DNA of 62,568 bases from Candidatus Saccharimonadota bacterium (GCA_017992295.1 JAGOOV010000002.1:1-62568); one strand, 5' to 3'; shown: positions 36,282 to 43,651, counted from the first letter of the stretch. The notes: generated from the letters alone by a model not told the origin. Numbers and translations are program-made.

Positions 36282-36857
36282 ATGGAAAAATATCAATCTT
36301 CACCGGCAGAAACAAGTAAAAAATGGTTACGCAGAGCAAAAGAGCTGGGTGCACCGGTATTAGCCCTTGTCATGCTGGCAGTTGAATGCGGATCAAGTAA
36401 AATAGCAGAATCGCAGGCCGAACGCCCCTTTCCTGGAATTGCCGAGCATTCGAGTATCACCCTAAGTCCTGACGATGCCAAACAATTGCGCCAAACAATT
36501 GAAGCAAAGAAAGAGCTTGAGAGTTTTTTAGATAAGGATATTTCCCAGACAGACAAAGATAAAAACGGTGCAAAATATTCAGATCCCTTAGGCGATATAA
36601 CTTACGGGTCCGGCAGCAGGCAAAAAATTGCAAATATCCTTGGGCTCGATTGGGGCGACCAAGAACAAGTTACCAGAATTAACGCTCGCGACTATGTCGA
36701 AGAAACTGTAAGGCAAAGAGCTCTGTGGTTAATAGGCGTCGGCGATTACGAAGGTGCAACATTTATAGTTCGTAAGTACATAGACTCTATGGGTAAAATC
36801 ACTCAAGAAAACGTATTCAAAGAGCTTACCGACGAGGCCGAAGCCCTCGATTTATAA
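36282..36857 (+). CDS. Hypothetical secreted/lipoprotein-like protein
   Basis: Begins MEKYQSS. A hydrophobic segment APVLALVMLAVECGSS could be a lipobox-like signal. No recognisable family motif. Confidence 0.55.
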   Translation: MEKYQSSPAETSKKWLRRAKELGAPVLALVMLAVECGSSKIAESQAERPFPGIAEHSSITLSPDDAKQLRQTIEAKKELESFLDKDISQTDKDKNGAKYSDPLGDITYGSGSRQKIANILGLDWGDQEQVTRINARDYVEETVRQRALWLIGVGDYEGATFIVRKYIDSMGKITQENVFKELTDEAEALDL

Positions 36858-37012
36858 CGCCAAGTTAGTCGTTTGTTTGTGTTATCTGTTTCCTCTAGCG
36901 CGGTTATAAGTTGTACATAGCATTTGGCAGTTTCCAATTTCGCTTTTACCACCCCTGCCTTCCGTCGTTGTCGATTTTCATGTAAACGAAGTTAGTGCAC
37001 CAACCAAAATTG

Positions 37013-38902
37013 CTAAACTATCAATTCGACAAATTTAACTATTAGCCAAGAAATAACCAAAAAAGTTATTGAAAAAACCGGGACAAATACAATTTTTAAC
37101 TTGTCTTTTGGCTGGAAAGTCCAAGATGAATAACCGGCTTGTTTAAGCTGCTTAAATAAATTTTTATCTTCCGGCTTAATCCTTTTAATTAAAAATCCCG
37201 TAATCAAAGCGGCAGTTGGTAGAATGTAAAATATCAAGTTGGGAACAAAATAGTCATCAAAATGATAATACCCATATCTCATCGAAGTGTCCAAACTATC
37301 AAGCAATGATGGTAAAGAAAATAAACCAAAAACAAAGAATGGTGTGGCCACGAAAAATAAAATTGTGGCAACTCTCCTTTCCCAGCAATATTCTTTCTGT
37401 ATTGTTTTAGCCAGTATCGGTGCAACGTTCTTAGTTGTATTTTTCGTTTTAATCAAGACTGTTGTTATTAATAGCCCTAAAATTGTTAGCAGGTTAGATA
37501 AACCAATTAAGCCAAGTTTTACTGGGTTTTTTCTTAAGTCCTTAAAAATTATTGAGCCTACTAAAAGTCCGGTAAGTACTGAGCTTAAAATAAATAGGAA
37601 TACGGTGATTACTATGGGGTATTTGGCGATAAAAGTTGAATAGTAAGTTTTTACAGGTGCTCGCGCTTTTAGCCACAAATCGTCGGTGAAAAACTTTGAT
37701 GGCGCATTGATTTCTATTTTGGTGTATTTGATATTTTCACCTCGTCCACTATAAAAGCCTTTAAAGTCACTGCCAAAACTAGCATTTTCATCAACATAAT
37801 ATTCGGTTTTTGTGTAGCTTTTTATTCCTTGAAAAACTTTTGGTGTAACATGGCCTATTACCCTTATAGTTACCGGAATTGTTTTGCTACCATAGACGCT
37901 TGTTGGGAGCAGCGGAAAATATATCTCTTTTGTGGGAAAGGTTACGAATATTCCTTTTTGGTTGGCTGATTTTTCATAAATATCATAATCTTCGGCGATT
38001 ATTGATGGATCATTTTGAATAGCTTGCGCTAATTCCTCCATAACAATTGCGCCTTGCTGGGATCTTAAATAACCGACTGGGTCGTAAGCGTAAGCCTGGT
38101 TAAATTCAGGATATTTTTGTTTTAAGTCGCCAATTAAATTTAAAAATTTCGGGTAATCATATTTATAAAAAAAATAATAATCTAGCTTGCTTTTTATTTC
38201 ATCGGCCGAATTTAACTTTTCGGGTGAGCTTATCCATGAAGCAATAAAAGAAAAATTTTTGCCGATGTAATTATCAAAAACCGGAATTGAACCAACTTCA
38301 ATTTTTAGCCCTTTGCCTTTCAAATAATCATATAGTCCATTTGCTGTTTTAGCAGTAATGATTTCCGAAGTGATGCCTTCTTTTTCTAAATGTTCATAAA
38401 CTACAACATCTTGTTCAACGCCATCCGCCAGGCTATTCGTTATGCCCATGCCCTTGTAGCGGCCTACAGTTTCTTCTGTACTTAGCGGGTTAAAATACGG
38501 CATTATAGGTATCGTGTAGAGTTGTGTCATTTGTAAAAATTTTTTTGCATTATCAAGATTCAATTTTGCTTTTTTCGAAATATCCTCACCTTTTAGTACG
38601 GGCATACTCTCAGCAACATCAATAGCGACTTTGTTTGGCTCCGCAGGAACGGGGAAAAGCCAAACAGCGCCATTGCTATTTTCTTTATCAATACCGACGC
38701 TGATAATCATTTTCTGCAAACCGTTACTGTAGTTGATAAACGCTTGTTGATTATCTTCGTCCGAGTAATCCCAACGGCCAGAATAAGGGTCGGGTTCTAT
38801 TATGGCTCCATCAGCCAAAACCGATTTAGGTAAAAAAGAAAATATCGCTAGAAGAAAAATAATAGTTAGCGATAAGTTAATAATATGTAGTAATTTTTTC
38901 AT
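37013..38902 (-). CDS. Large orphan membrane protein (signal peptide, ~400-aa extracytoplasmic domain, C-terminal multi-TM region)
   Basis: 629 aa. Begins MKKLLHIINLSLTIIFLLAIFSFLPKSVLA, contains the motif AVWLFPVPAEP, and has at least 5 C-terminal TM helices. AT-rich codon usage. Confidence 0.6.
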   Translation of the reverse strand: MKKLLHIINLSLTIIFLLAIFSFLPKSVLADGAIIEPDPYSGRWDYSDEDNQQAFINYSNGLQKMIISVGIDKENSNGAVWLFPVPAEPNKVAIDVAESMPVLKGEDISKKAKLNLDNAKKFLQMTQLYTIPIMPYFNPLSTEETVGRYKGMGITNSLADGVEQDVVVYEHLEKEGITSEIITAKTANGLYDYLKGKGLKIEVGSIPVFDNYIGKNFSFIASWISSPEKLNSADEIKSKLDYYFFYKYDYPKFLNLIGDLKQKYPEFNQAYAYDPVGYLRSQQGAIVMEELAQAIQNDPSIIAEDYDIYEKSANQKGIFVTFPTKEIYFPLLPTSVYGSKTIPVTIRVIGHVTPKVFQGIKSYTKTEYYVDENASFGSDFKGFYSGRGENIKYTKIEINAPSKFFTDDLWLKARAPVKTYYSTFIAKYPIVITVFLFILSSVLTGLLVGSIIFKDLRKNPVKLGLIGLSNLLTILGLLITTVLIKTKNTTKNVAPILAKTIQKEYCWERRVATILFFVATPFFVFGLFSLPSLLDSLDTSMRYGYYHFDDYFVPNLIFYILPTAALITGFLIKRIKPEDKNLFKQLKQAGYSSWTFQPKDKLKIVFVPVFSITFLVISWLIVKFVELIV

Positions 38903-39165
38903 GACTTAATCTTTAAATAATTTTGTTAAACATTCAATACTAACCTTAAGAGTTTTTGTTATTTTTCGGATAGTATAAAGTGTTAACCGGTGGTTAATGC
39001 CAACTTCAATTTTGGCAATAGCACAAAAAGCAATGTCAGATTTTTTATTTCTGATTCTGTATATTGAAAAATATTAAGTATATTTTGGTAATTTCGGTAC
39101 TGCTCTATCTTCAATTGTAAATATTTCTTTTGTCGCTCTCGTATAGTTTTGCTATATAAAAATTA

Positions 39166-39186
39166 TAAAAACGGCCGACGAAGCCG
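39166..39186 (-). terminator. Weak intrinsic terminator candidate after the endonuclease gene
   Basis: The minus-strand RNA forms CGGCU-UCGUC-GGCCG followed by UUUUU. Confidence 0.3.
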
Positions 39187-39225
39187 AAGCCTTTGAGTTT
39201 TGAGATTTTAGTAATCATGAAAAAT

Positions 39226-40743
39226 CTAAGCAGTTACCTCATTTAAAGTGGTTTTCATCTCAAGGCTATCAACAAATTTATCAATATCCGAGATTCTAAC
39301 TTCCAAACCATCTTTTTTGATAAAATCAAAATAGCGCTCAGTATCAATAAAAGATTTTGGCGAAATAAACACCGAGTAGGATTTCGTGCCTCTTTTTACA
39401 TATTCTTCAAGGTGACGATGTATAGAGAATGATTCTCTAATATGTTGTTGCGTTCCCGTTAGCAAGGTTACTTCGACTAAAACCGTGTCTTTATTTTCTA
39501 AACATTCAATATCGGGGCTTCCGCCAGAAGCGAAGCTCGTCGGCAGTCCTTCGTCATCTGAAATAAAATTTGGTTTCACGATAACACTCGGTAATTTTTT
39601 AAGGATTGCGAGGGAAGTCAAAAATTCCAATCGCAGTGGTTGTTCAATAACTTTCAAAATATCATCACTTGAAGATTTTTTCTGTGCCAAATTCAGCAGT
39701 TCGTTTTTAATAGATTCCCAAGCGTAATGATTAACCCATTTTTCCAATTCAGCTTTTGTGGTTTTTTCAGGAGCTTTAAATACCGTAAGTGTTGAAATTA
39801 AATCGTGGTCAACTTGTCCGATGTATTCAAAAAATTCTTTTTCCGTTTCAAATTCTTTGTAAGAAATGTAATTTTTTAGAATGTAATCTACGGTTACAGA
39901 TTCTTTTGTATTTATATCTATAAATCGACCGCCGCCGCGCAAAGAAAACAGTCCGGTTAGACGCATTTTTCTTATAAAATCGTCAGGATAATCACCGAGG
40001 ATTGAATTATTATCTCTCTTTGTTTCGTTTAACAATTTATAGCAAAGATCCAAAACTACCTCGTTACTGGGCGTGTAGCCGTGATTTTTGCGTAGTTTCT
40101 TTATCTTTTTATATAAATCTTCGGCATTGTCATCCTGCCAGCATAGCAATAATGGTATTTCTGCTCTGGATATACCAGCTCCTTTGTACGCAGGGTCATC
40201 GTTCAAAAATTTTATGGTTTGTATAAGCAAAATAAGCGGGACATTTTTATTTAAAACACGGCGAAACGGATTTTGGCGTTGATATTTTGCAAAAGCATTG
40301 GCAAAAACCATTAGCTCATTTTCTGGTTTTCCTTTATCCAGTAACATTTTTCCGCTTTCGGAAAATTTTATTTCTTCATCTTGCCAATACCAAACAAAGC
40401 CAAGTTCTTTGGCGATTTTAAACCAAGTATCAAATCTTGAAGGCCATCCCTTTTCAAATCCTGCTTCTTTGTGGCTTTGTGGGTTATCAGAAAATACTTT
40501 TTCGGTTTCAGATTCGCTCAATTCAATTTCATTCTTCCATTTATCCTTTAAAACCGAAGACACTTTCATTGGCTGATATAATCCTTTTTGAATTAAGGAT
40601 TTGGCAACCTTATCTATAATTTCATTTGTTAAAATTTCGCCGTCATATTCCGCAAGTACAGCCAAAAAATCCTTCAATCGTTCAGGATTTCTCATTGTAG
40701 TTGTAAACAGTAATGGCTTGTATTCAGATTGTCGTTTATTCAT
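39226..40743 (-). CDS. AlwI-family type II/IIS restriction endonuclease
   Basis: The N-terminal LFTTTMRNPERLKDFLAVL signature is one I recall as characteristic of AlwI/PleI/MlyI/N.BstNBI-family enzymes. The C-terminal PD...E.(K/T)-like core reads GGSPDIECLENKDTVLVEVTLL. It sits directly downstream of two methyltransferases. Confidence 0.7.
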   Translation of the reverse strand: MNKRQSEYKPLLFTTTMRNPERLKDFLAVLAEYDGEILTNEIIDKVAKSLIQKGLYQPMKVSSVLKDKWKNEIELSESETEKVFSDNPQSHKEAGFEKGWPSRFDTWFKIAKELGFVWYWQDEEIKFSESGKMLLDKGKPENELMVFANAFAKYQRQNPFRRVLNKNVPLILLIQTIKFLNDDPAYKGAGISRAEIPLLLCWQDDNAEDLYKKIKKLRKNHGYTPSNEVVLDLCYKLLNETKRDNNSILGDYPDDFIRKMRLTGLFSLRGGGRFIDINTKESVTVDYILKNYISYKEFETEKEFFEYIGQVDHDLISTLTVFKAPEKTTKAELEKWVNHYAWESIKNELLNLAQKKSSSDDILKVIEQPLRLEFLTSLAILKKLPSVIVKPNFISDDEGLPTSFASGGSPDIECLENKDTVLVEVTLLTGTQQHIRESFSIHRHLEEYVKRGTKSYSVFISPKSFIDTERYFDFIKKDGLEVRISDIDKFVDSLEMKTTLNEVTA

Positions 40744-40747
40744 AAGT

Positions 40748-41653
40748 TTAATAGTTAGTGATTAAAACTTCCTTAATTATCTTTTTGCTGTTGTTATGAT
40801 AATTAATGTAGTTGCTTTCAATTTTGTGTACTTTATATTTTTTTATCCATTTCAACAGTAGGTCGTTTTTACTTCCGTTATAGTAAGTAACATTCGATAA
40901 GGCAAACCTAGCGCCTTTTTTGTCTAAGTCTTCAATCATTTTTAATAAATCGGCTTCTGATTTTCGATTCCACAATTTATTATATTCACTTGCGGATATT
41001 AAATATGGAGGATCTAAATATACAAAATCATTTTTTGAATATTTTTTGTTTGAAAAAAACTTTTTAAAATCTTTTGAGGTTATAGATATTTTTTTATCAT
41101 GTACAAAATCAAAGTAGCCATTCAAGGCATTAACAACATTTTTATTAAAATCAACATTGCCCACAGGCAAATTAAATTTACCCCCGCCATTAAATCGCAA
41201 CATCCTATTGAATCCGTAAATAAGCAGAATATACAAAATTAGGGGGTCATTTTTCTGATAATTATTTACGCACAATCTCAATTTATCGTATCCGTCTTTA
41301 TTAAATTTTGCGTAATAAGTTTTTTTAAATTCCTTTTTTAGCGAATCAGGGACAATGTCCTTTTTATATGAATGCGAAAGTTTATATTTATGGATTATTT
41401 TTTCGGCTTCCTTAAAAAAACCTTCTGGATTTTTTGCGCTAGCGATCAAAAGCTTATGAATATTGATTAAGTGTTTGTCTATATCGTTAAGAAAATATTT
41501 TTTCGCTTCAATATTCAAAAATACTGTGCCTCCGCCGACAAAAGGTTCATAAAAATTATTTATTTCTTTGGGAAATAAATTTACCAGTTGTTTCATCAGC
41601 TTGTACTTGTCCCCGACGTAAAACAAAGGAGATCTTTTTATTTTATTTGTCAT
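40748..41653 (-). CDS. D12-class N6-adenine DNA methyltransferase (Dam-like), second MTase of the operon
   Basis: Motifs LFYVGDKYKL, FYEPFVGGGTVFLN (motif I) and VYLDPPY (motif IV). Its ATG overlaps the upstream gene's stop by 4 bp. Confidence 0.88.
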   Translation of the reverse strand: MTNKIKRSPLFYVGDKYKLMKQLVNLFPKEINNFYEPFVGGGTVFLNIEAKKYFLNDIDKHLINIHKLLIASAKNPEGFFKEAEKIIHKYKLSHSYKKDIVPDSLKKEFKKTYYAKFNKDGYDKLRLCVNNYQKNDPLILYILLIYGFNRMLRFNGGGKFNLPVGNVDFNKNVVNALNGYFDFVHDKKISITSKDFKKFFSNKKYSKNDFVYLDPPYLISASEYNKLWNRKSEADLLKMIEDLDKKGARFALSNVTYYNGSKNDLLLKWIKKYKVHKIESNYINYHNNSKKIIKEVLITNY

Positions 41654-43458
41654 AGTTTTGCCTTTGTTACGAAAAGATATTCTTTGTGATTATTAAAATT
41701 GGTATTGCCTGCGTTGAAATGCCTATAATTTTTTTCAAAAACCTTTGTCGGGCCTTTTTTTTGTAAAATCTGCTCGATTTCTTGTAGTGTGATTTTATTT
41801 TTTGAGGAGTTGCTTTTTGAATCGTATGTATTGTTGTACGAAACGACTAAATATTTAGCGTCAAGGTCTCTCACGAGTTCTGCAAATTTATCTTTAGCGT
41901 TGTTTCGACAATAATCGCTCATATTTTCCGGTTCTGGCTTTAGGGCAACACCAAAAAGTTTTGGTTTATCCCATTTAGTCAAGGTTTCAAGTACATGATA
42001 AAATCTGCTGTATTGTCTTGAGTTGTATGGTGGATCAATATAAACAACATCAGCATTTATTTTTTTAGCTAAAGCGTTCGCATCTTCTTGAAAAATTGAT
42101 ATTTCTTGCGTGTCTATTGGGTCAATCGGTTTCATAAAAAAACTATCATTGATAAATTCCTTTTTGAAATAAGCATCAAAGTGCCCAACCGTATTGGCGA
42201 TTTTATCTGCGGTATAAAGCAATGAAGCGATTAGCATGTAATATTCTCGTTCAGTTAAATTATTTTTATTTTCTTCTATATTTTCGCGAATAAATCCGAT
42301 AATTTTTGCTGAATTTTTGCTAAAAAATTTGCCACCAAAATTCTTGGAAAAGTAGTTTTCCTCCAAGTCATCGCCATAAATATTATTATAGCTTTTGACG
42401 ATGTTATCTATTTTATTTTTATCCCATCCCTCATCTCCGAAAAAAGCGCGATATATTGCATAATTTGAATGTAAAAAATCATTTAATAGAACTTTTTCAA
42501 AATGTTTTGTCGCGACAGCAGAAACAACGCCTGTTCCAGCGAAAATATCTGCAAATGAATTTCCGCTACATTCTTTGTTGATTATAGAAAAAATCCATTC
42601 AATCAATTTGTGTTTATTTCCGATATATCTGCGATTGTGTAGTTGTAGATGATTTTCTTTTACTTGTGGAATGTAAAAATAATTTTCTTGGATTTGTTCG
42701 GCGGTTATCTCATAGGTTGGTCTTTCGGTTTCAAACATAGCAAAAAGCGTGCCCTGTATTCCATCTGCCACATAATCAATACCTGCTTTTTGTTTATTTA
42801 TTTTTTCGTAAAAGCTGTAATGGTCGTTTTGAGAAACGATAATAAAATCAATGACTGGTATTCCCATTATTTCGCCAGCTTGTATGATTGTTTCAATAAT
42901 TTGATTGTCCTTTTCGCTTGGTGAAGAGTCGCCGGAAGGATGATTATGAACCAAAATAACGCTGGCGGCATTTAATTCGGTCGCAGGATAAAATATCTCT
43001 CTTGGGTGTAGCAATGCTTTATCTAAAAGACCGACACTGACAATTTCTTTTTTGAGTAAAACATTTCGTGCGTTTAAATAAAGACAAACTAAATGTTCTT
43101 TTTTCTTATCTCTTAAATCGTAAGTAAGGTATAAAATATCTTGAGAATTTTTTATAACAATATCGTTGGTTTTGTCTTCGTCATAAAATCTTTTTACCAA
43201 TGAAATCGCGGAAGCAATTTGTAGTGCTTTTGCTTGTCCGATTCCTGAAATCTCCAAAAGATCATTAACGGTTATATTCAAAAAGTTTTTACCGAATTTT
43301 TTGATAATATTTTCAGAAAGTTGTCTGACATTTTTCCCCTTAATCCCACTACCTAAAAGAATTGCCAAAAGGTCACTTTTTGAAAGTGCGTCAGCACCTT
43401 TTTCCAGAAACCTTTCTCTTGGGCGATCAATTTTTGGTATATCCTTAATATTTGGCAT
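41650..43458 (-). CDS. Fusion protein: RadC-like JAB/MPN domain (N-terminal ~225 aa) + D12-class N6-adenine DNA methyltransferase (C-terminal ~330 aa)
   Basis: The RadC part has RPRERFLEKGADALSKSDLLAILLGSG, the HhH segment ISGIGQAKALQI, and the JAB motif HNHPSGDSSPSEKD. The MTase part has RRYIGNKHKL, FADIFAGTGVVS and VVYIDPPYNSRQY. It is one uninterrupted 602-codon frame. Confidence 0.85.
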   Translation of the reverse strand: MPNIKDIPKIDRPRERFLEKGADALSKSDLLAILLGSGIKGKNVRQLSENIIKKFGKNFLNITVNDLLEISGIGQAKALQIASAISLVKRFYDEDKTNDIVIKNSQDILYLTYDLRDKKKEHLVCLYLNARNVLLKKEIVSVGLLDKALLHPREIFYPATELNAASVILVHNHPSGDSSPSEKDNQIIETIIQAGEIMGIPVIDFIIVSQNDHYSFYEKINKQKAGIDYVADGIQGTLFAMFETERPTYEITAEQIQENYFYIPQVKENHLQLHNRRYIGNKHKLIEWIFSIINKECSGNSFADIFAGTGVVSAVATKHFEKVLLNDFLHSNYAIYRAFFGDEGWDKNKIDNIVKSYNNIYGDDLEENYFSKNFGGKFFSKNSAKIIGFIRENIEENKNNLTEREYYMLIASLLYTADKIANTVGHFDAYFKKEFINDSFFMKPIDPIDTQEISIFQEDANALAKKINADVVYIDPPYNSRQYSRFYHVLETLTKWDKPKLFGVALKPEPENMSDYCRNNAKDKFAELVRDLDAKYLVVSYNNTYDSKSNSSKNKITLQEIEQILQKKGPTKVFEKNYRHFNAGNTNFNNHKEYLFVTKAKL

Positions 43459-43465
43459 ATTTTGT

Positions 43466-43552
43466 TTATTTAATTAAATCCTCAATCGTAACATCAAGAG
43501 CTTTCGTTAATTTTACCATGATGAGCGCAGGCGGTGTTTTAATTACATTACT
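43466..43552 (-). pseudogene. Remnant of an XRE-type HTH protein (C-terminal half only; possible decayed R-M controller)
   Basis: A 28-codon frame reads SNVIKTPPALIMVKLTKALDVTIEDLIK*, which matches the helix-3/C-terminal part of HTH_3 domains. A stop lies immediately upstream. It sits between the R-M operon and the tRNA. Confidence 0.3.
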
Positions 43553-43561
43553 TTAAGTTTT

Positions 43562-43651
43562 TGGCGGAGAGGAAGGGATTCGAACCCTTGATGACATTGC
43601 TGCCATACTCACTTTCCAGGCGAGCCAGTTCAACCACTCCTGCACCTCTCC
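43562..43651 (-). tRNA. tRNA-Ser (anticodon GGA), CCA encoded
   Basis: The reverse complement folds as acceptor GGAGAGG/CCUCUCC, anticodon stem CUCGC/GUGAG with loop CUGGAAA, a long variable arm (class II), T-arm AAGGG-UUCGAAU-CCCUU, discriminator G, then CCA. Confidence 0.9.

Follow-up and report, generated by a model that had tools for sequence, protein, structure and literature searches.

A RadC head on the first methyltransferase of an AlwI-type restriction-modification cassette, with a conserved tether motif and a putative link to the sliding clamp

The stretch of DNA analysed here, called the window, is the 62,568-nt sequence JAGOOV010000002.1:1-62568 of a Candidatus Saccharimonadota bacterium (GCA_017992295.1). 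Its minus strand holds a restriction-modification (R-M) cassette of three genes, in which a RadC protein joined in frame to a DNA adenine methyltransferase (MTase), called M1, is followed by a second MTase (M2) and by a restriction endonuclease (REase), called R. The single 602-codon open reading frame (ORF) of the fusion, reported by the initial annotation with its strand unstated, was recovered on the minus strand. The parts of the fusion and the two genes after it are the following.

41650..43458, minus strand: RadC-M1 fusion gene, a single ATG-to-stop ORF of 602 codons
43225..43449, minus strand (aa 4-78): UPF0758_N domain with the GIG motif of a helix-hairpin-helix (HhH), Pfam PF20582, 1.8e-22
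42802..43149, minus strand (aa 104-219): RadC-type JAB/MPN domain, Pfam PF04002, 2.1e-36
42664..42801, minus strand (aa 220-265): tether between the JAB domain and the M1 arm
42742..42774, minus strand (aa 229-239): tail motif YVADGIQGTLF, with the core QGTLF
41650..42663, minus strand (aa 266-602): M1, D12-class N6-adenine MTase with its own N-terminal arm
40748..41653, minus strand: M2, Dam-family N6-adenine MTase of 301 aa (TIGR00571, PF02086)
39226..40743, minus strand: R, AlwI-family type IIS restriction endonuclease of 505 aa (PF09491, 7.3e-42)

Both halves of the fusion had been described as complete modules and were found as such, with Pfam and NCBIfam domains above the cut-offs. The head scored 216.5 bits with the NCBIfam RadC equivalog NF000642 (cutoff 180) over aa 14-219 and 206 bits with the RadC family TIGR00608 (cutoff 133.85). 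It carries the HhH motif ISGIGQAKALQI at aa 70-81, an assignment supported by HHH/HHH_5 Pfam matches in sister heads, and the JAB motif HNHPSGDSSPSEKD at aa 171-184 (positions 42907-42948), its JAMM residues being E154, H171, H173, S181 and D184. In Foldseek the model of the head superposed on the solved RadC 2QLC (TMt 0.86-0.89, root-mean-square deviation 1.7-2.2 Å, 40% identity), and phmmer related the head to 2qlc_A at 1e-27. In the MTase half, the Pfam domain MethyltransfD12 (PF02086) spans aa 278-539 (2.5e-36, 126 bits against a gathering cutoff of 22) and the PADLOC profile MTase_II PDLC03373 matches aa 269-600 with 425 bits. The motifs RRYIGNK, FAGTG and DPPY are present, and those quoted earlier were all located, the two of the head at the positions just given and YIGNK, FAGTGVVS and DPPYNSRQY at aa 278, 306 and 475. 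The fold of the modelled MTase matched DpnM, EcoDam and T4Dam in Foldseek with a probability of 1.00. AlphaFold2 returned the whole fusion as two confident domains, in blocks mostly above 90 in the predicted local distance difference test (pLDDT), with a predicted template modelling score of only 0.60. These matches indicate that the head is a complete RadC (HhH and JAB) with an intact active site and that M1 is a predicted N6-adenine DNA methyltransferase.

Stand-alone RadCs stop a few residues past 'YSF' (aa ~220; …YSFYEKI, aa 214-220), and stand-alone M1 orthologs start at the position equivalent to fusion aa ~262-272. The linker length of about 45 aa given by the initial annotation agrees with these ends and starts, and the linker is not passive, since it holds a near-invariant QxxLF-type motif. 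A hidden internal start or promoter for a separate MTase was considered and rejected, codons 211-270 having only mild synonymous dips (0.30-0.32 against a mean of 0.41), and Met241 was rejected as an internal start, the residue not being conserved (I45/L45/M23).

A frameshift or an assembly join in the linker is ruled out, contigs from four independent public runs/studies spanning 41500-43588 with 0 differences and 0 gaps, while related clusters and distinct genes keep the frame. All (100%) of the sampled words of the fusion gene are present in 11 or more public metagenome runs from soil, activated sludge and anaerobic digesters, which thus contain the exact gene sequence. The fusion is frequent in metagenomes, being known from more than 120 clusters and from ~35 of the species representatives of GTDB. 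Among the 120 best-matching protein clusters, at 78-94% identity, 118 are 601-606 aa long and have all domains. Thirty-two distinct full-length genes of 600-605 codons were extracted from GTDB species genomes and metagenome contigs. Among these, synonymous codons differ in 41% of comparable pairs, and amino-acid divergence is 14% in the HhH domain, 19% in the JAB domain, 22% in the methylase and 35% in the tether. The HhH domain is thus the least divergent part of the gene (0.140, against 0.434 at synonymous codons) and the tether the fastest evolving (0.351). The ratio of amino-acid to synonymous divergence is 0.32 and 0.45 for the two RadC domains and 0.54 for the MTase. All 32 genes keep E154, H171, H173 and D184, and 31 keep S181; in the MTase, F306, G308, G310 and DPPY475-478 do not vary in the whole set. 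From the low divergence of RadC and its invariant JAMM residues, it follows that selection holds RadC at least as strongly as the methylase. The comparison as a whole indicates that the fusion is a genuine protein maintained by selection.

The claim that the fusion heads an R-M gene cluster was borne out, M2 and the AlwI-family R coming next on the minus strand. The M2 start overlaps the fusion stop by 4 nt (ATGA) and 4 nt separate M2 from R. M2 scored 140 bits with TIGR00571 (cutoff 114.85) and 362 bits with PADLOC PDLC03383, and it is syntenic in nearly all loci. R matched PADLOC REase_II PDLC03507 at full length with 432 bits, its C-terminal region matches the structures of N.BspD6I and R.BspD6I, and the linkage of an AlwI-family REase to methylase gene(s) was seen as synteny in more than 25 loci. 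First place in the operon, as stated initially, applies in the window, but relatives place a helix-turn-helix (HTH) or PDC-S14 gene ahead of the fusion. The REBASE-derived profiles of PADLOC recognise the RadC-less cores of all three genes, an NCBI-annotated Lactococcus lactis plasmid has the same gene order as the window (M1, Dam M2, AlwI REase), and such a pair of MTases, whether or not the two are fused, is noted to accompany AlwI-family REases (PMC12898733). For these reasons the R-M core is assigned to the AlwI-type type IIS systems and is of a known kind. AlwI, BspD6I, PleI, MlyI and N.BstNBI have the same PF09491 REase and two N6-adenine MTases, one of them of the Dam family. The present system differs from these in that M1 bears a complete RadC and a conserved tail, which the REBASE-derived profiles (339-aa M1) and the plasmid relatives are without.

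In such a system each of the two MTases, M1 and M2, would modify its own strand of an asymmetric recognition site that is probably GGATC-like, and unmodified DNA would be cut by R. Site avoidance in the window was uninformative as to specificity, the observed/expected ratio being 1.53 for GGATC and 0.83 for GAGTC. GATC itself is scarce in the whole window (103 observed against 182 expected, ratio 0.57) and the most depleted pentamer there is TAAGA/TCTTA (93 against 158, z = -5.2); both depletions may reflect other modification or restriction pressures in the genome.

The RadC head was also found on methylases of other families. With one representative taken per 50%-identity cluster (P numbers; loci are given L numbers), a second, divergent RadC-D12 fusion was found at 41% identity (P0122), together with related heads of 45-60% identity joined to a C5 methylase, PF00145 (P0132, P0138, P0139 and P0212), and to an N6_N4 methylase, PF01555 (P0191). 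A search with the head of a C5 fusion gave 120 further heads, at 52-89% identity, joined to C5, D12 or N6_N4 methylases. In the five loci examined the fusion heads an R-M-type operon: at L012, in a genome outside Patescibacteria, an EcoRII-C endonuclease comes after a RadC-N6_N4 fusion, at L006 MTaX1 comes after a RadC-C5 fusion, and AlwI-family REases come after other RadC-methylase fusions. A rough neighbour-joining tree puts the fused heads into one or two groups, in which the MTase types are interleaved and which stand apart from nearly all of 29 stand-alone RadC representatives. The head thus belongs to a dedicated RadC group found N-terminal on D12, C5 and N4/N6 methylases.

The two halves do not share one history. 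The fusions of L043-L045 are 91-94% identical to that of the window over aa 1-220 and only 34-52% over the MTase, with a breakpoint at aa ~221-250, in the tether, and those of L039, L041 and L046 have the reverse pattern. These opposite patterns imply that heads and methylases have different histories and were re-assorted at the tether.

The head resembles housekeeping RadC/YicR (UPF0758; 2QLC) in its two-domain architecture, its hidden Markov model scores above the cut-offs, its intact JAMM residues and its fold. Housekeeping RadC, however, is a stand-alone protein of ~220-230 aa at a chromosomal locus, and the fusion head lies inside a mobile cassette and has a C-terminal tail. No second radC was found in the window. 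The RadC of the fusion is part of the mobile cassette and not the housekeeping radC of the host. One protein listed as a stand-alone RadC at 67% identity (P0136) was considered as a housekeeping ancestor and rejected, as it proved to be a gene cut short, followed by unrelated DNA on a contig of 968 bp. Two further architectures were noted, a Clp_N and RadC fusion (P0227) and an HhH-only head, its JAB domain lost, followed by QLTIF and a D12 MTase (P0216).

The same three genes were found in unrelated neighbourhoods, one of them on a contig that carries complex I, sigma-54 and LexA genes and is clearly not from Patescibacteria. DNA homology to the window locus was limited to 39215-43470 (72-90% identity), and with the closest flank class (L017, L020) it reached 39183-43569 in blastn. 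The cassette lies in a block of ~30-35% guanine-cytosine (GC) content within a region of ~44%. Host labels, which for metagenome bins may be wrong, covered many Patescibacteria classes, Atribacterota, Planctomycetia, Brocadiaceae, Nitrospirae and Margulisiibacteriota. These loci show that the cassette, which brings no recombinase along, moves horizontally between phyla as a unit.

The endonuclease is also exchanged alone, the fusions of L021 and L034 being ~90% identical to that of the window with an R of only 51-52% identity (in L021 the fusion is 91%, M2 90% and R 52% identical). Independent endonuclease exchange was noted as well in L039, L041, L046 and L049, and in L043-L045 an AlwI-family REase of 26% identity stands directly after the fusion, with no M2. 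Decay was seen in L031, with a truncated fusion, no M2 and a frameshifted REase, and in L054 (4968-7594), where RadC aa ~10-190 are lost in frame, the first 9 residues and the tail motif are kept, and the methylase is interrupted by an insertion of ~1.3 kb.

All fusion types (D12, C5 and N4/N6) share the motif Y-[VL]-x-[DEQ]-G-x-Q-x-x-L-F, which sits between the natural C-terminus of RadC and the N-terminus of each methylase and has the form Y-V-A-D-G-x-Q-x-[ST]-L-F in the window family; the tail segment of the fusion, aa ~226-246, contains DYVADGIQGTLFAMFETE. In the 119-member family, Y229 and L238 are kept in 119 members and G233, Q235 and F239 in 118, and the positions on either side (221-228 and 240-248) are variable. 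In the alignment A2 of 98 diverse heads, no sequence departs from Y229, and at least 90% keep G233, Q235 and L238, a conservation equal to that of the catalytic residues. Qxx[LM]F is present in 79 of the 98 heads with enough post-RadC sequence, most of the others having near variants, and the forms met with include QGTLF, QASLF, QNSLF, QATLF, QYSLF and QLSLF. The motif is absent from 30 stand-alone RadC representatives, which end before it.

The core QGTLF at aa 235-239 fits the beta-clamp consensus Q1-L2-x-L4-F5, in which Q1 and the hydrophobic residues 4 and 5 are key and which often lies in unstructured regions (PMC4549789). Mobile elements, namely insertion sequence (IS) transposases, use this motif to work in distant hosts (PMC4549789). 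Where M1 has another head, or no head at all, a QxxLF-type motif can again be seen ~20-42 aa ahead of its catalytic core: a LexA-M1 fusion has QLPLF in its tether, one stand-alone M1 has QLALF at residues 5-9, the HhH-only head has QLTIF, and QRTLF is a further form. The count was 8 among 29 representatives, where shuffled sequences gave 0.76 +/- 0.85 (never more than 4 in 500 shuffles), and four of the eight are not full RadC fusions. In the AlphaFold2 model pLDDT is 59-78 across aa 221-270, the lowest of the protein. In the model of the head alone the pLDDT of the tail falls to 62-65 and further on to less than 50, the only structure being a short helix from 238 to 242-245, and these low values imply that the tail is not firmly packed on RadC. 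This is compatible with a flexible linear docking motif, without being proof of one. The tail shares with the known beta-clamp binders (Pol II/IV/V, MutS, Hda and IS transposases) a Q-x-x-L-F, here in a probably flexible segment, and, through its putative binding, a universal host hub; it differs from them in that the motif is internal and has the extra conserved prefix Y-V-A-D-G.

With these features, the RadC head is very probably a functional accessory of R-M methylases, and head and tail would act in cis as a DNA-directed accessory of M1. In the reading preferred here, the QxxLF tail would dock on the beta sliding clamp left on newly replicated DNA. Such docking would keep methylation close behind the fork and would put the RadC hydrolase where restriction damage to unmodified nascent DNA would arise. 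The clamp would be a universal hub working in any new host, and its universal conservation would suit a cassette that protects whatever genome it lands in. That head and clamp-docking tail couple the methylase to DNA, probably newly replicated DNA, is given a little less than an even chance; docking of the tail on the beta clamp, taken for itself, is a tentative proposal. RadC itself may act as a nuclease or other nucleic-acid processing enzyme, as Iyer et al. propose, or as a peptidase. Passages of PMC1635313 and PMC9674854, which go back to Saveson and Lovett 1999, link RadC to recombinational repair at stalled forks.

Several observations weigh against this coupling of the methylase to the clamp. 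No report of a bacterial DNA methylase binding the clamp was found in the literature, and we know of none that does so. One QxxLF match is expected by chance in about 1 of 10 proteins of 600 aa, some heads have variants without Q or F, and HTH-headed M1 orthologs are without the motif. The conserved Y-V-A-D-G prefix goes beyond what a clamp motif needs, so that the motif may have a different role, for instance in processing or in contacts to M2, R or the MTase. In the full model the motif itself has a pLDDT of 74-78 with small beta bridges, and it may dock on the MTase. One fusion-bearing bin is labelled Nanoarchaeota, a host that would use PCNA and not the beta clamp, although a binning error is likely there. 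Lastly, close RadC-less relatives exist (L050, with M1 74% and M2 80% identical, and also L051), and from the RadC-less cassette of L050 the head is seen to be an accessory that is not essential for this R-M type.

A broader proposal is that a clamp-tethered, DNA-processing RadC head was recruited repeatedly by three unrelated methylase families and couples methylation, and the chemistry of RadC, to the replisome, as a bacterial counterpart of DNMT1 on PCNA. In addition, a T-run in the motif could toggle, through slippage or a prfB-like +1 frameshift, between a RadC that ends in QxSLF-COOH and the full RadC-methylase. This proposal is considered less likely than not. Eukaryotic DNMT1 binds PCNA and couples maintenance methylation to replication; the comparison is meant as an analogy only.

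RadC ranks high among the widely distributed bacterial proteins that lack a known activity; its name is acknowledged to mislead, and neither partner nor substrate has been established. A whole RadC group dedicated to R-M methylases gives it, for the first time, a concrete and testable partner. If the clamp-tethered head is true, it would offer a first mechanistic grip on RadC, a protein whose role has been a puzzle since the 1980s, and it would point to a further means by which mobile R-M systems avoid harm to the cells that carry them. Patescibacteria, like other uncultured lineages, have these systems in great abundance.

In the RadC fusions described so far the partner is HhH, ArdC, primase or helicase (PMC3239186, PMC5512222), and the RadC-methylase architecture is unmentioned in the text of these two papers. 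The fusions of conjugative elements (ArdC, DnaG primase, DinG helicase; Iyer et al. 2011, 2017) are alike in that a JAB domain is linked to DNA-handling enzymes on mobile DNA in restriction conflicts. The present fusions differ in having the full HhH and JAB and a single partner, always a DNA methylase, at the head of an R-M operon. They also fall outside the definition of polyvalent proteins (Iyer et al. 2017), and no conjugation or phage genes flank the cassette in the neighbourhoods examined. A literature search on RadC-methylase fusions, on a link between RadC and the clamp and on clamp-binding bacterial methylases found nothing relevant. The suggestion that the architecture is undescribed stands in that no description was found in the searchable literature, but it is common and present in databases, where the fusion is named 'DNA repair protein RadC' or 'adenine-specific DNA-methyltransferase'. 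Recorded under the RadC name, the architecture has, as far as could be found, not been interpreted, and with the annotation 'DNA repair protein RadC' the fusions are probably missed as R-M methylases. The RadC head on an R-M methylase would thus be an undescribed variant on an R-M core of known kind.

A regulatory or sensor role is improbable in our estimate, and it is nevertheless the explanation that competes best with coupling to the clamp. RadC would here take the part of an N-terminal HTH or LexA domain and control the expression or the activity of the R-M genes, a possible route being JAB-dependent cleavage at the tail (after ..DG) that frees the methylase or answers a DNA signal. Orthologous cassettes do carry other heads in the same position. 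HTH_3 replaces RadC on M1 in L010 and L011, followed by a 301-aa M2 and an AlwI REase; LexA_DNA_bind and Peptidase_S24 stand before M1 in L008 and L009, again with an AlwI REase after it; and M1 of the L. lactis plasmid has an HTH-like N-terminal extension. The arrangement of DNA-binding domain, peptidase, tether and MTase is true of LexA and RadC heads alike, the conserved D/E-G just ahead of Q could be a cleavage site, and peptidase domains have been proposed to process polyvalent proteins (PMC5512222). In SsoII and Ecl18kI, N-terminal DNA-binding domains regulate (PMC3978073, PMC2760811), which makes a regulatory role of the RadC head a serious rival. M.SsoII and M.Ecl18kI resemble the fusion in their extra N-terminal DNA-binding module on a flexible linker, and the HTH- and LexA-headed M1 orthologs extend this likeness, but the module here is an HhH with an enzyme domain and not an HTH, no operator is conserved, and a separate HTH gene is often found upstream.

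The upstream DNA bears further on this regulatory role. It falls into three unrelated classes, homology often ending ~10 nt before the ATG: a 282-aa GIY-YIG-like/DUF4357 gene, PDC-S14 (class A), an Xre HTH gene of 68 aa whose end lies ~7 nt ahead of the ATG (class B), and a conserved non-coding leader (class C). At least three unrelated upstream classes and no conserved operator speak against regulation by the head. In the class-B loci the separate 68-aa HTH gene already fills the role of a regulator; it is intact directly upstream of the fusion in L017 (HTH_3 at 3.9e-17), L020 and L033 and frameshifted in L032, and it coexists with RadC-M1 also in L059 and L060. From this coexistence, RadC was added to a regulator and did not replace one. 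HhH motifs bind DNA without sequence specificity, which again does not favour a regulator. The LexA-M1 fusion has its own QLPLF, so that the motif tracks the tether and not the type of peptidase. Finally, RadC-type JABs have been argued to be without the groove for ubiquitin tails and to act on nucleic acids, not on peptides (PMC3239186, PMC5512222).

Beside these upstream classes and heads, some single observations were made. The conserved leader, which contains …cgctacgaaaacgatttatttataaggggaaaacgaatacaata…, precedes the fusion in L018, L022, L043, L044 and L016; even genes with no more than ~45% identity between their methylase halves have it in common, so that it moves together with the RadC head, and it may hold a promoter. 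The coding strand ahead of the fusion start in the window gave no sigma-70 promoter, and shuffled sequences have more promoter-like sites than this region. The PDC-S14 gene (L001:7149-7997; also L014, L019, L037 and other class-A loci) is a PADLOC candidate defence gene (353 bits) with a weak RAMA hit, and in about one third of the loci it ends 3 nt before the fusion ATG; with the cassette it may form an extended defence island. A complete LexA followed by QLPLF and M1 makes up P0146, whose locus, L008, also holds an N6_N4 MTase and a DpnI-like methyl-dependent endonuclease, and in P0127 an S24 peptidase is fused to a tandem D12-D12 methylase.

It is distinctly unlikely that the fusion serves as a helper in establishment or transformation, the head directing the methylase to incoming or recombining single-stranded or gapped DNA. 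The model would be DpnA of the pneumococcal DpnII system, and the effect would be to protect DNA just acquired, or the genome of the new host, during establishment of the system. RadC-like domains accompany anti-restriction modules on elements whose DNA enters the cell single-stranded. Patescibacteria, in which the cassette is abundant, have been reported to take up DNA. The cassette crosses phyla without a mobility gene, as is compatible with uptake and recombination. In a passage of PMC1635313 radC is placed within competence regulons, and RadC is fused to ArdC, primase and helicase on conjugative elements (PMC3239186, PMC5512222). Direct evidence for such a helper is absent, however, and the tail motif would be left unexplained. 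Work of Attaiech and colleagues from 2008 is said to have found that pneumococcal radC mutants transform normally. No hit over both halves of the fusion was obtained in 72,556 plasmids, 50,697 phages and IMG/VR, where the halves match only separately, and the fusion is consequently not a conjugative or phage early-entry protein.

A neutral accident, in which the cassette was inserted beside a host radC, the stop was lost and the fusion hitch-hiked, is very unlikely. Fusions do arise in this way, RadC-less cassettes function as units (L050, L051) and RadC was lost by in-frame deletion in the decaying L054, but the head travels with the cassette into unrelated genomes, and constraint on RadC exceeds that on the MTase, with an intact active site, across 32 genes in which ~41% of synonymous codons differ. 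The same head group, moreover, is found on three unrelated MTase families, and the re-assortment of heads and MTases at the tether has kept the motif.

The surroundings of the cassette in the window comprise three further features.

39172..39186, minus strand: terminator-like hairpin with a T-run, 40 nt past the REase stop and within the conserved cassette
43466..43569, minus strand: 3' remnant (last ~34 codons) of a 68-aa Xre-type, controller-like HTH gene
43562..43651, minus strand: tRNA-Ser(GGA), found by ARAGORN, its 3' end adjoining the cassette

The window belongs to class B, with the HTH gene reduced to ~34 codons against the tRNA; this gene is cut at the 3' end of tRNA-Ser, so the cassette copy of the window has lost its putative controller. 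The contigs of public runs that hold the cassette all break inside tRNA-Ser (loose ends at 43559-43592), where several different sequences continue and word depth is 2-5x that of the flanks. This branching fits a tRNA common to many genomes, and the flanks of the cassette may differ between strains. A search for att-like copies of the tRNA-Ser end, as would mark an integrative island, found none with a length of at least 13 nt. On the other side, the low-GC block extends past the cassette over 36750-39200, outside the conserved part, and encodes at 37013-38902, minus strand, a protein of 629 aa that is predicted to cross the membrane several times and is matched by neither Pfam nor PADLOC.

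The Leu-Phe codons of the motif, CTT TTT in the window (42742-42747), form a run of five T (T5). A sequencing or assembly artefact, the radC and MTase genes being joined by a frameshift error or a chimera in the linker, hardly deserves credit: the run is a frameshift hotspot and alleles with six T (T6) in L059 and L060 split the gene there, but the contigs of four studies are identical over the junction, the full-length clusters number more than 120, the 32 distinct genes are intact and the window carries the in-frame T5 form. CTT-TTT is found at the site in 18 of 34 genes against ~20% expected, in sequences that are related, and the remaining 16 have shorter runs. With these shorter runs and this relatedness, a conserved programmed slippery site was not established and was set aside. 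In the T6 alleles (L059:5640-5860 and L060:2450-2617) the sequence reads TCA CTT TTT TGA where fused genes have T5, and the rest of the methylase lies in the +1 frame; they could stem from homopolymer error, from phase variation or from a prfB-like +1 frameshifting at UUU UGA. The T6 alleles place the motif at the exact C-terminus of RadC; they are the DNA of two of three independent protein clusters in which RadC ends at the motif (P0293, P0304 and P0361, with the ends …QGSLF*, …QHSLF* and …QTTFF*).

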